DNA from: Paenirhodobacter sp.
GTDB lineage: Bacteria; Pseudomonadota; Alphaproteobacteria; Rhodobacterales; Rhodobacteraceae
Length of the DNA stretch: 64,000 nt
Assembly: GCF_041916475.1 (NCBI RefSeq)
Contig: NZ_JAYRZN010000011.1
Span: 26,053 to 90,052 of the forward strand
Direction of reading: 5' to 3'
Shown here: piece by piece, positions 59,320-61,249 of the stretch
Layout: every line of letters begins with the position of its first letter
Numbering within the stretch: position 1 is the first letter of the stretch
Made by a program: the position numbers and the translations under genes
Notes under the pieces: model-generated
Database searches by the model: none
Told to the model about the DNA's origin: nothing
What the model saw: only the letters and a program-made list of their open reading frames with translations

Positions 59320-60495
59320 TCAGGGGGTGCCTGAAGCCGATTCGGGCTGCTGCGGTGCTTCGGTGACGATTTCCCGCTGCCATTCGCGCCAGATCGTCAC
59401 GAGAAGCGCCATCAGCACCGGCCCGACGAACAGCCCGACGATTCCGAGCGTTTTGACCCCACCAACCAGGCCAAACAGGGTGGGCAGGAACGGCAGCTTC
59501 ACCGGCCCGCCGACCAGCACGGGGCGAATGGTTTTGTCGACGGTGAACAGCTCGACCGTGCCCCAGACGAACAGGGCGATCCCGGCGACGGTCTGGCCAT
59601 TGGCCATCAGATAGACCGAGACCAGCGTGAACGAGAGCGGCGCGCCGCCCGGAATGAGCGCCATGAAGCCGGTGATGACCCCGAGCGTGACCGGCGAGGG
59701 TGCCCCGGCGAGCCAGTAGGCGATGCCCAGCACCACGCCTTCGCCGATGGCGATCAGGGTCATGCCGGTCACGGTGGCGGAGATCGTGGCGGGGACCACG
59801 CGCGACAGCCGCTCCCAGCGGGTGGGCAGGATGCGCAGGCCGACCCGGTCGATCTGCGCGGCGATCTTTTCGCCGTCGCGGTAGAGCACGAACAGGGTGA
59901 TCAGCATGAACAGCAGCGTCAGCGCCAGATGGAAGGCCAGCGCCCCGGCGGTGAGCAGGCCGCGGTAGATCGCGCCGATGTTGGAGCCGCTGACCAGCTG
60001 CACCAGCTCGCCGATGGCGCCGGGGCGGCCGACGAATTCGACCCATTGCTGATCGATCCAGGGGCCGATGCGGGGCAGGCGGAGCATCCAGTCCGGCGTG
60101 GGCGCGCCGACGGCATTGACCTCGAAGGCCCAGCCGGTCCAGCTCTGCAGCTCGCCAAAAGCATAGACGAGCGCCATGGTGATCGGGACCACAAGGAAAC
60201 ATACGATCAGCAGGACCATCAGGATCGCGGCACCGGTGCGGCCGGAGCGCTCCACCGCCCAGTTGCGGATGGGCCAGCTGGCGAGGCAGATCACCCCTGC
60301 CGCCAGAACCGGCACCAGGAAGCCATAGAAGAAATAGATCGACGCGGCGATGATGGCGAGCAGCAGCCAGCGCGCCGCCGAGACATCGGAGATCAGCGGG
60401 CGACGGAACATCGCGCGGTGGGGCACGCGCGACAGGATATCCGGGTCGAGCTTCCTGCGCGGTTTGCCGCCGGGGGGATCCGTGTTGGTGACCAT
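59320..60495 (-). CDS. AI-2E (PerM/YdiK) family transporter; start could be 60552
   Basis: Multiple TMs, FVLYRDG, ALIPGGAP, D..IRP.LVG, GLFVGP. Confidence 0.88.
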   Translation of the reverse strand: MVTNTDPPGGKPRRKLDPDILSRVPHRAMFRRPLISDVSAARWLLLAIIAASIYFFYGFLVPVLAAGVICLASWPIRNWAVERSGRTGAAILMVLLIVCFLVVPITMALVYAFGELQSWTGWAFEVNAVGAPTPDWMLRLPRIGPWIDQQWVEFVGRPGAIGELVQLVSGSNIGAIYRGLLTAGALAFHLALTLLFMLITLFVLYRDGEKIAAQIDRVGLRILPTRWERLSRVVPATISATVTGMTLIAIGEGVVLGIAYWLAGAPSPVTLGVITGFMALIPGGAPLSFTLVSVYLMANGQTVAGIALFVWGTVELFTVDKTIRPVLVGGPVKLPFLPTLFGLVGGVKTLGIVGLFVGPVLMALLVTIWREWQREIVTEAPQQPESASGTP

Positions 60496-60610: not shown

Positions 60611-60832
60611 TCAGGCCTTGTTTTCGTCGGCGGGTGCCGCGGCGGTGGCCTGGGCGACGGGGGATGCGATCGCGGGCGTTTCGGATTCTTCGTCTTTCAG
60701 GCCGCGTTTGAAGGCGGTCATACCCTTGCCGACTTCGCCCATCAGGCCTGCGACCTTGCCCTTGCCGAAGAGCACGAGGACCACGACGGCGATCAGAAGC
60801 AGATGCGGAAGCGCCAATCCATTGCTGAGCAT
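60611..60832 (-). CDS. tatA: Twin-arginine translocase subunit TatA/E, orphan copy (no tatB/tatC adjacent)
   Basis: LLLIAVVVLVLFG.GK..LMGEVGKG..AFK.G; SD AAGGAG 7 nt before ATG. Confidence 0.92.
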   Translation of the reverse strand: MLSNGLALPHLLLIAVVVLVLFGKGKVAGLMGEVGKGMTAFKRGLKDEESETPAIASPVAQATAAAPADENKA

Positions 60833-60840
60833 GTTCTTTC

Positions 60841-60895
60841 TCCTTGAACCATGAGGTGCCGCGCGGACGGCGCGGCGCGTGTCGGGATCAGAGGA
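60841..60895 (-). promoter_or_regulatory. Predicted mRNA stem pairing the uORF stop region with the tatA Shine-Dalgarno
   Basis: UCCUCUGAUCC (60895-60885) pairs with GGUUCAAGGA (60850-60841): 9 bp, one bulge, one U.U; encloses a 7-bp GC hairpin at 60858-60876. Confidence 0.55.
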
Positions 60896-61214
60896 TGCGG
60901 GGCGGCGCGCGCGATTCGGCCCAGGAATGGGTGCGGATGATCCGGTCCGGGCCTGCGGCGAGGTCGATCGTGGCCGGGAAATTCCGGACGAGCGGCATCA
61001 CAAGCCGAGCGGGGACGGGCAGGATCGCGGGCGGCAGGTCGTCCGGAGTGGTGGCTTTGGAAAGAAACAGACGGTCCTCGCCGCCGATCAAGGCGATGCG
61101 CTCGGCATGCGCCCAGAAGCCGGCTGCGCCGCGCTCGGGCACGAAGCTGCTCAGCAGGGCCAGAAGGCCCAGCAGGACAACCGATACACAAAGGCCCTTC
61201 GTTGCGCGCGACAT
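60888..61214 (-). CDS. 108-aa membrane-anchored leader protein ending in RAPP (candidate translation-arrest peptide)
   Basis: MSRATKGLCVSVVLLGLLALLSSFV...RIIRTHSWAESRAPPRIL*; hydrophobic residues 8-25; RAPP = residues 102-105 (60911-60900). Confidence 0.7.
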   Translation of the reverse strand: MSRATKGLCVSVVLLGLLALLSSFVPERGAAGFWAHAERIALIGGEDRLFLSKATTPDDLPPAILPVPARLVMPLVRNFPATIDLAAGPDRIIRTHSWAESRAPPRIL

Positions 61215-61220
61215 GACGGG

Positions 61221-61249
61221 AACGTGACAGCCCGCGCCCGCGCTGGCAA
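61221..61249 (-). promoter_or_regulatory. Sigma70-type promoter predicting a leaderless transcript for the RAPP ORF
   Basis: TTGCCA-N17-CACGTT-N6-ATG; no SD in front of the ATG. Confidence 0.55.

Follow-up and report, generated by a model that had tools for sequence, protein, structure and literature searches.

The leader ORF and its position upstream of tatA2

A 64,000-nucleotide stretch of the genome of a Paenirhodobacter sp. (GCF_041916475.1, contig NZ_JAYRZN010000011.1, positions 26,053 to 90,052), called the window below and the source of all coordinates unless another contig is named, carries on its minus strand a small open reading frame (ORF) followed by a second copy of tatA, a gene belonging to the pathway of twin-arginine translocation (Tat). 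The small ORF, which we call the uORF or leader ORF, is a candidate ribosome arrest peptide. The tatA copy, called tatA2, is the gene that it might control. The uORF (60888-61214) has 108 codons and a TGA stop. It starts at the ATG at 61214 and its product reads MSRATKGLCVSVVLLGLLALLSSFVPERG...THSWAESRAPPRIL, with the TGA at 60890-60888. tatA2 (60611-60832) encodes a protein of 73 amino acids (aa), and 55 nucleotides (nt) separate its ATG (60832) from the end of the uORF.

At the N-terminus of the uORF product is a hydrophobic segment (codons 8-25, 61140-61193), which could act as a signal peptide or as a signal anchor and has no twin-arginine motif. Close to the C-terminus is the predicted arrest motif R102-A103-P104-P105 (60900-60911), encoded by CGC GCG CCG CCC and followed by CGC ATC CTC and then the TGA. 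By analogy with ApdA and ApdP (PMC12992588), Pro104 (codon 60903-60905) would occupy the P-site and Pro105 (codon 60900-60902) the A-site. A preliminary description of this DNA had reported the 108-aa ORF with its hydrophobic residues 8-25 and its RAPP three codons before the stop, and had placed the end of the ORF 55 nt upstream of a tatA without tatB or tatC neighbours. All of this is confirmed, tatABC being located on another contig (C1). The same description spoke of a proline-rich spacer between the hydrophobic segment and the motif. The spacer is indeed present, but its enrichment in proline is only modest (about 8 Pro in about 76 residues, counted by eye).

The GC content of the uORF at codon positions 1/2/3 (0.70/0.53/0.82) resembles that of the neighbouring genes, and the same coding-type pattern (GC3 > GC1 > GC2) is found in the uORFs of every locus considered here. 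In several assemblies the uORF has been called independently by gene callers, and the NCBI annotation lists it as a hypothetical protein. It has no match in Pfam or NCBIfam. When eight members were searched against Pfam, no family was found at E <= 1, DUF2946 (PF11162) included.

Occurrence of the uORF-tatA unit in other genomes

Twelve loci from five genera were compared. Eight are of the Paenirhodobacter type: the window, L005-L007 (which are also designated L034-L036), and the loci L091, L092, L093/L094 and L095 from metagenome assemblies. The remaining four are from other genera of the Paracoccaceae. Within the genus, a second tatA is present in four other genomes, three of which have a co-oriented ORF upstream. 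Immediately before the stop codon these ORFs end with GWPEPRAPPASP in G004 (L034 = L005, a metagenome-assembled genome (MAG) derived from Oxford Nanopore reads), CGPAPRAPPIKT in G021 (L035 = L007) and LRPASRASPERS in Sinirhodobacter populi SK2B-1 (L036), a cultured strain whose leader is of the RASP type. In the fourth, G006, the TatA paralogue (L008; 69% identical and grouped with the uORF-associated clade in our tree) lies 36 nt after the kup potassium-transporter gene and has no leader ORF. The uORF-tatA pairing can therefore be lost or replaced. The leader of L005 (NZ_JASGKI010000004.1) has one extra base at codons 12-13 (GTT C GTG), which splits off the N-terminus MNRIARALNISV. As only one base has been added, in a MAG built from nanopore reads, an indel error of the sequencing is the probable cause rather than decay to a pseudogene.

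A profile search of a collection of 5.8 billion proteins provided four more distinct leaders (P0005 to P0008) from run assemblies, each of them followed directly by a TatA_B_E gene. A hidden Markov model (HMM) search of 1.84 billion representatives gave 7 clusters, all of the Paenirhodobacter type, and added P0009, which ends with CCWPASRASPRLF. A word-indexed search of protein databases likewise gave members of this type only. Leaders from other genera were found only by reading the DNA upstream of second tatA copies and not by searching protein databases. For this, the Paracoccaceae were sampled with one genome per genus, and genomes with at least two tatA hits were examined. A leader precedes the second tatA in four further genera. 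These leaders end, again directly before the stop codon, with ...RPASQGPPPSA (L113), ...RPGSQAPPAQV (L115), ...RPFSQAPPHLI (L120) and ...AAQARAPPARG (L122), and each has a start codon and a hydrophobic segment 105-112 residues before its end. Small samples taken at the order and class levels gave a single tatA hit per genome.

The arrangement is the same at all 12 loci, hydrophobic segments having been judged by hydropathy alone. The uORF is 104-128 aa long (90 aa in the frameshifted L005, where the longest uninterrupted frame was taken) and has a hydrophobic 15-17-mer within its first 35 or so residues. A spacer of 69-92 aa leads from this segment to a motif of the form (R/Q)(A/G)(P/S)P, after which come exactly three codons, TGA and, 32-136 nt later, a co-oriented tatA. 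The motif is RAPP in six loci, RASP in two, QAPP in two and QGPP in one, with the R/Q, the A/G and the last P always at the same places. If P0004 and P0009 are included, four of ten Paenirhodobacter-type sequences have RASP, and three other genera have QAPP or QGPP. The preliminary description had proposed testing whether, upstream of orphan tatA copies in relatives, the transmembrane (TM) segment and a C-terminal RAPP/RGPP are kept while the spacer diverges. This was borne out with respect to the TM segment and a RAPP-like motif, which are kept in the 12 loci, and to the spacer, whose identity is only 21-39%. It did not hold for RAPP in the strict sense.

Arrest cores that have been established or tested include RAPP (in ApdA and ApdP), RAPG (in ApcA), RAGP (in SecM) and RGPP, QAPP and HAPP (in RQH). 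In these, the third residue of the motif is in the P-site and the Pro is in the A-site (PMC7897499, PMC10987492, PMC12992588). uORFs with RAPP, RGPP and QAPP are known to stall ribosomes (PMC10987492). ApdP also stalls the ribosomes of Escherichia coli. SecM homologues include natural examples of RASP and RGSP, and the RGSP-containing SecM of Mannheimia is listed as an experimentally demonstrated staller, so that the RASP variants are within the known repertoire.

A further contig from ENA (L096, 975 nt, coverage about 1) contains the 3' half of a leader that is near-identical to that of the window (ending with ATIDLAAGPDRIIRTHSWPESRAPPRIL and the stop). Its N-terminal half is unrelated and abuts an XFP/HIT-domain gene, and the contig stops before tatA. 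It may be a chimera produced by assembly at low coverage; otherwise it is a copy that has been rearranged.

Selection on the leader peptide and the chance background

In alignment A2, where identity to the window leader is 21-39% with many indels, the invariant columns are G16, A19 and L20 (the TM core), R28, P66, R102, A103 and P105. The R, the A and the last P of the motif are invariant in alignments A1/A2. Since the motif codons vary synonymously among the loci (CGC/CGG/AGG for Arg, GCG/GCC/GCT for Ala and CCG/CCT/CCC for Pro), selection on the motif acts at the peptide level. For L036 and L095, which form the closest informative pair (74% identical), the substitutions at codon positions 1/2/3 number 15/14/35.

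A2 contains no conserved column of Cys, His or Met. The leader of L007 (L035) has a CxxxC immediately before the motif (HCDDRCGPAPRAPP; VPHCDDRCGPAPRAPPIKT) and that of P0009 has a CC (SDCCWPASRASPRLF). These are reminiscent of leaders of the CutF/CruR type but are not family-wide. Membership of the tatA leaders in the DUF2946/CruR/CutF group was considered and rejected on the grounds that there is no Pfam match and no conserved Cys or His.

Clearly, the occurrence of RAPP in a single sequence carries little weight in a genome of 67.6% GC. Its six reading frames hold 29,470 ORFs of 60 aa or more, and RAPP occurs 1,117 times in them. It is located within the last 10 residues of 50 of these ORFs and exactly at positions -7 to -4 of six. 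We therefore rejected the single-sequence RAPP as evidence of significance, and it is conservation that carries the argument. A combined filter requiring an N-terminal hydrophobic segment, a RAPP-like motif no more than 8 residues from the end and a coding-type GC3 leaves five ORFs in the entire genome, the tatA uORF among them.

This genome also carries two leaders before other genes. One, of 118 aa, is on the minus strand of contig C12 (55747-56104 on the reverse-complemented contig). It has an N-terminal TM segment and a PDCPACH sequence, ends with ...GGRAPPAA and is 56 nt upstream of a gene for a PCu(A)C copper chaperone (PF04314, E 9.8e-6 using the first 70 aa). It looks like a member of the copper-related class of RAPP leaders (PMC12992588). 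The other, of 135 aa, is on the plus strand of contig C13 (30269-30677). It ends with ...FLARGPPLMAT, and thus carries RGPP, gives a weak match to DUF2946 (E 0.042, below the cut-off) and precedes a PepSY_TM gene (PF03929, 5.9e-15) by 58 nt. Because leaders before both classes of gene have already been described (PMC12992588), these two serve as internal positive controls. Together with the tatA uORF they bring the number of RAPP-type leaders with different targets in this genome to at least three.

Predicted pairing of the uORF stop region with the Shine-Dalgarno sequence of tatA2

The end of the uORF is predicted to pair with tatA2's Shine-Dalgarno (SD) sequence. The 5' arm of this masking helix, UCCUCUGAUCC (60885-60895), includes the end of codon 107, codon 108, the UGA and three more nucleotides. 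The 3' arm, GGUUCAAGGA (60841-60850), includes most of the SD, AAGGAG (60840-60845). The arms are also named as UCCUCUGA (5') and UCAAGGA (3'). Minimum free energy and centroid folds place an inner GC hairpin of 7 bp, GCCGCGC-CGUCC-GCGCGGC (60858-60876), within the helix, and comparable GC-rich inner hairpins are found in L006, L007 and L095. The SecM-like layout noted in the preliminary description is strengthened by the conservation of this pairing.

Although the final three residues of the uORF are variable (RIL, ASP, ERS, IKT, SLS, VLS and SVS), the bases YCC or CUC followed by UGA are kept, which argues for a constraint at the RNA level on the stop region. The pairing was examined with a duplex scan in which all 14-nt segments of the leader (about 300) were matched, in each locus, to the SD arm. 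The segment including the stop codon is the best SD partner in six of the eight Paenirhodobacter-type loci, and ranks 31 in the window and 15 in L007.

In addition, a footprint scan was carried out in which a 28-nt ribosome footprint (P-site -12 to +15, the +15 edge being an assumption) was forced to be unpaired and shifted codon by codon. In three of the four loci scanned, the predicted accessibility of the SD remains at a baseline of 0.2-0.3 until the P-site is at codon -6/-5, where it reaches 0.83 in the window, 0.66 in L005 and 0.46 in L006. The motif begins its Pro residues at codon -5, and it is this first Pro that corresponds to the P-site residue of the ApdA/ApdP arrest. For the window, the predicted probability that the SD is unpaired is 0.27 in the free RNA, 0.85 with the footprint placed with Pro104 in the P-site and 0.27 with the footprint 30 nt upstream. 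In silico, a ribosome at the arrest site opens the SD in seven of the eight Paenirhodobacter-type loci, where the unpaired probability increases from 0.0-0.27 to 0.46-0.85. When the footprint is shifted 30 nt upstream, none of them shows this opening. The fixed distance of three codons to the stop thus corresponds to how far a ribosome halted at the motif would extend.

In the four other genera, pairing of the stop region with the SD or beside it uses different bases. For example, L120 has a perfect helix of 10 bp (UUUGAUCUGA/UCAGAUCAAA), and helices involving the stop region are also seen in L113 (CCUUCGG/CCGAAGG) and, by eye, in L122 (UGAUCC/GGAUCA).

The tatA2 gene and its neighbourhood

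tatA2 matches Pfam TatA_B_E (1.5e-10) with 40.6 bits against a cut-off of 21. Its best NCBIfam matches are all TatA/TatE models, with scores below the cut-offs (for TIGR01411, 53.4 against 53.9). The product, LPHLLLIAVVVLVLFGKGKV...AFKRGL, shows the features of TatA/TatE proteins: an N-terminal TM helix, an FG hinge, an amphipathic helix and the family HMM match. It is 59% identical to the canonical TatA encoded on contig C1. In this genome (3.5 Mb in 80 contigs) tatA, tatB and tatC are found together on C1, which also has the only tatC. Since neither tatB nor tatC lies beside tatA2, we regard it as a TatE-like orphan paralogue.

Residue 10 of tatA2, in the TM helix, is His (60803-60805), where the canonical copy has Gly. 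A polar TM residue is also found in the other TatA copies associated with a uORF. Canonical copies read LPGLLLIAVVV, and the variants are LPHLLL (Paenirhodobacter type), LLIVVVTLLL (L113 and L115), LLIVAVTVLL (L120) and LPEMLII (L122). Judging from these sequences, the polar residue (His, Thr or Glu) may mark a functionally specialised TatA. In a tree of TatA copies the uORF-associated paralogues fall into at least two groups. The tree is poorly resolved, too weakly to separate one from several origins of the uORF-tatA pairing.

The upstream neighbour of the unit is a gene of the GlcNAc 2-epimerase family. Downstream is a gene for an AI-2E family transporter (59320-60495, minus strand; Pfam AI-2E_transport, 3.6e-35), which follows tatA in all Paenirhodobacter-type loci whose contigs reach far enough. 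The transporter was considered as the true partner of the uORF and rejected. Of 57 relatives fetched, 54 (including those of Paracoccus, Gemmobacter and Pannonibacter) have neither tatA nor uORF upstream, and only L034-L036 (3/57) have both. In the other genera the genes after the uORF-tatA unit differ. For these two reasons the transporter is placed outside the conserved unit. In L113, L115 and L120 a gene for a small protein, and no AI-2E transporter, follows the second tatA. The protein has a zinc-ribbon-like motif (Cys-x2-Cys...Cys-x2-Cys) and a C-terminal TM segment (...TLLHW/TLMHW...).

Possible expression signals

A speculative promoter (61221-61249, minus strand) consists of TTGCCA (61244-61249), 17 nt and CACGTT (61221-61226), with the uORF ATG 6 nt further on. 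By eye, a TTGCC(A/T/C) box followed by 17 nt, a hexamer and 5-7 nt to the ATG is also present in L005, L006 and L007. This geometry recurs in four loci and the uORF ATG has no preceding SD, and we therefore speculate that the uORF mRNA is leaderless or near-leaderless. A scan for consensus sigma-70 sequences gave no promoter at 61221-61249. In addition, one metatranscriptome contig reaches 61237, 23 nt upstream of 61214, which does not fit a start at 61214. RNA-type libraries from wastewater include short, low-depth contigs across the uORF, the intergenic region and tatA, for which DNA carry-over is possible. Inside the uORF (61070-61085, minus strand, approximately codons 44-49) there is a weak terminator-like hairpin of 5 bp with a T-rich tail (GGCGGCGAGGACCGTC TGTTTCTTTC).

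Proposed mechanism

We favour the interpretation that the uORF is a translated arrest leader of the RAPP class, which controls translation of the orphan tatA in the manner of SecM. As far as comparative genomics reaches, this interpretation is supported. The different parts of the proposal do not carry equal weight. The uORF is very likely to be a genuine leader gene that is under selection and has a functional link to tatA. The peptide probably stalls ribosomes. The complete SD-unmasking mechanism, as modelled here, has in our view a somewhat better than even chance of being correct, while the chance that the stall is released by Sec/YidC pulling falls a little short of even.

The mechanism would operate as follows. 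The leader would be translated and its N-terminal hydrophobic segment would emerge with the ribosome still some 80 codons from the end. Formation of the peptide bond between the two prolines of R-A-P-P would then be blocked while the P-site holds Pro104 peptidyl-tRNA and the A-site Pro105-tRNA, which is how ApdA, ApdP and SecM arrest. The stalled ribosome would span approximately 15 nt past the P-site codon, covering the UGA and the three codons before it. When the mRNA is free, this same segment would pair with the tatA SD. Under the stall the SD would be open and tatA would be translated, and this state would persist as long as the stall because the stalled ribosome covers the segment that pairs with the SD. 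A pull on the nascent chain by Sec/YidC would release the stall and lead to termination, the helix would form again and translation of tatA would decrease. The direction in which the stall would regulate tatA is inferred, as are the stalling and its release by export. The spacers of 69-92 aa are longer than the 30 aa or more needed to expose the signal and are within the range of Sec-type monitors (PMC10987492).

The peptide looks, from its sequence, like a substrate of the Sec/YidC type. The leaders include no consistent twin-arginine motif. Its absence, already reported in the preliminary description, holds in all members except L113, which has an atypical RR and is an ambiguous case. A monitoring substrate, such as SecM, MifM or VemP, uses the pathway that it regulates. 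The leader has no Tat signal, so that the monitored and regulated pathways would differ and, strictly speaking, the term monitoring substrate does not apply to it. This difference is the novel aspect of the system. We would suggest, but only tentatively, that the unit is the first arrest-peptide switch wired to Tat, in which a leader of the Sec/YidC type, or one sensitive to membrane energy, cross-regulates a specialised TatA paralogue. If this is true, Tat or TatA-dependent membrane capacity would be raised or remodelled when Sec/YidC insertion falters, and the system would represent cross-talk and not self-feedback.

A number of observations weigh against the arrest-leader interpretation. 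In ApdA and ApdP, replacement of the Arg by any residue, and nearly any replacement of the Pro at the third position, abolishes arrest (PMC12992588). Given these mutants, the RASP of four of the ten Paenirhodobacter-type sequences and the Q in place of R in three genera are unfavourable. RAPP alone is insufficient, since stalling does not occur at most of the RAPP-like sequences that ordinary proteins contain. The family is small and patchily distributed, occurring in approximately 5 of 400 sampled Paracoccaceae genera and in 7 clusters among 1.84 billion representative proteins. Its target, a Tat subunit, is outside the pathway that the peptide would use, and the feedback logic of monitoring substrates is missing. 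With respect to the RNA, the local fold is no more stable than that of shuffled sequence (z = 0.48), which is why position-specific and comparative tests were used. The result of the footprint scan depends on the edge assumed for the footprint. SD unmasking is not predicted for L007, nor is it predicted in the four other genera, where the intergenic regions are 59-136 nt long. Finally, the RNA-type contigs indicate that the region is present and do not define transcript ends or translation.

Alternative explanations

The same SD-unmasking helix could be operated by an arrest leader whose stall senses something besides Sec/YidC pulling. Candidate signals are proton-motive force, the state of the membrane, the supply of elongation factor P (EF-P) or proline, and a metal or small ligand of the sort suggested for CruR and CutF. 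RAPP-type leaders do precede genes of many functions, some of them metal-linked (PMC12992588). The target here is not a component of Sec or YidC, so that the classical feedback logic does not apply, and L007 has a CxxxC just before the motif and P0009 a CC. However, a metal or ligand sensor finds no counterpart in a conserved Cys, His or Met column or in a DUF2946 match. Besides the motif, the one conserved feature is the N-terminal targeting segment with its spacer of 69-92 aa, which is what release by force needs, and RASP variants, which have no Pro-Pro pair, argue against a purely EF-P-dependent pause. We consider a signal of this kind unlikely. It is somewhat less likely again that the uORF product is a small protein, secreted or in the membrane, that has its own function, perhaps as a partner of the TatA paralogue, with tatA simply coupled translationally and the C-terminal motif being structural or causing a mild pause without regulated arrest. 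Conservation is difficult to reconcile with a folded function, since outside the TM core and the last 7-10 residues there is hardly any (21-39% identity, many indels). Ordinary proteins strongly avoid RAPP-like motifs, whose enrichment is at the C-termini of small exported leader proteins (PMC12992588), and a fixed distance of three codons to the stop suits the geometry of the ribosome better than the structure of a protein. What speaks for this second alternative is that the uORF and tatA are always co-oriented and close, that the RASP and QAPP variants might stall only weakly, and that in the footprint scan the stop/SD helix is opened by any terminating ribosome (positions -4 to -1), as plain coupling would require.

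It could also be argued that the uORF is simply a chance ORF in GC-rich DNA and that the conserved bases serve only an RNA structure or a promoter of tatA. The abundance of RAPP, with 1,117 occurrences in the six-frame ORFs and 50 near ORF ends, would fit this, as would the presence of overlapping alternative ORFs on both strands and the lack of a Pfam or NCBIfam family. Such an ORF would not be expected to remain open, with a similar length, a hydrophobic N-terminus and a motif at -7 to -4, in 12 loci and five genera. Nor does it account for synonymous changes in the motif codons (CGC to AGG included), for the GC3 > GC1 > GC2 pattern and excess of third-position substitutions, or for the independent gene calls in several assemblies and the hypothetical protein in the NCBI annotation. 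We regard this explanation as very improbable.

Significance

Monitoring substrates that act by arrest are known for SecA, SecDF and YidC, and RAPP-type leaders have lately been found before metal-related and other genes. The uORF-tatA unit is probably a stall-operated switch, of a type already known for Sec and YidC genes, with Tat as the new target pathway. To our knowledge, no TatE or second TatA paralogue with a stalling leader peptide has been described, and our literature searches agree. Full-text searches gave no report linking Tat or any tatA paralogue to arrest peptides, in line with the preliminary description, in which the pairing was not known to have been described. TatA, twin-arginine and Sec-independent translocase are not mentioned in this connection in PMC12992588 (text and supplements) or in PMC10987492.

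If the stall is real, it would provide a regulatory handle on why bacteria keep extra copies of TatA/TatE, a long-standing loose end, and an example in which the monitored and the regulated pathways differ. It would also make natural RAPP, RASP, QAPP and QGPP variants available in a single homologous context, with a fixed geometry of three codons and a simple SD-masking helix. This would be a compact system in which to examine how the strength of the motif and the geometry of the footprint set the output of a stall.

Comparison with known systems

The tatA leaders are similar in many respects to ApdP and ApdA and to the RQH family (PMC7897499, PMC10987492). All are small uORFs that begin with a signal or TM segment and continue with a spacer, variable and more than 30 aa long, to an R/Q-A/G-P-P close to the stop codon. 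They are co-oriented and located just upstream of an export gene, and their distribution is patchy and includes the Rhodobacterales. They differ in their targets, which are secDF, secA and yidC for ApdP, ApdA and RQH but a TatA paralogue for the tatA leaders. There is no detectable homology beyond the motif, and the tatA leaders also use RASP. The distance from motif to stop is fixed at three codons in the tatA leaders and is 5-6 codons in ApdA and ApdP. A predicted SD-sequestering hairpin is conserved with the tatA leaders, whereas none could be predicted for ApdA, ApdP or ApcA. For the RQH leader of Alteromonas, induction of secDF2 through an SD-masking stem-loop has been shown experimentally (PMC10987492).

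SecM, which controls secA in Escherichia coli, shares with the tatA leaders a signal sequence, a spacer and an R-A-x-P with its Pro in the A-site. In SecM the SD of the following gene is masked by a stem-loop that the stalled ribosome breaks, and a counterpart of this is predicted for the tatA leader. SecM is itself a substrate of the pathway that it regulates, while the tatA leader has no Tat signal yet precedes the gene for a Tat subunit. The FxxxxWIxxxxGI element of SecM is absent from the tatA leader, and the tatA leaders are shorter (104-128 aa against 170 aa).

Leaders with RAPP or RGPP are not restricted to export genes. A 2025 survey found them before genes for TonB receptors, YcnI, PCu(A)C, PepSY and extracytoplasmic function (ECF) sigma factors, enrichment being measured against AAPP controls (PMC12992588). 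The leaders of the CruR-BfrG, CutF-CutO, PCu(A)C, PepSY and YcnI classes (PMC12992588, PMC9426467), of which the PCu(A)C and PepSY classes are represented in this genome, have conserved Cys/His residues or DUF2946 and are linked to metal homeostasis. The tatA leaders have neither conserved Cys/His nor DUF2946. As for the downstream gene, TatE of E. coli and TatA2 of Campylobacter jejuni (PMC4148689) are, like tatA2, encoded by a monocistronic extra gene of the tatA family located away from tatABC.

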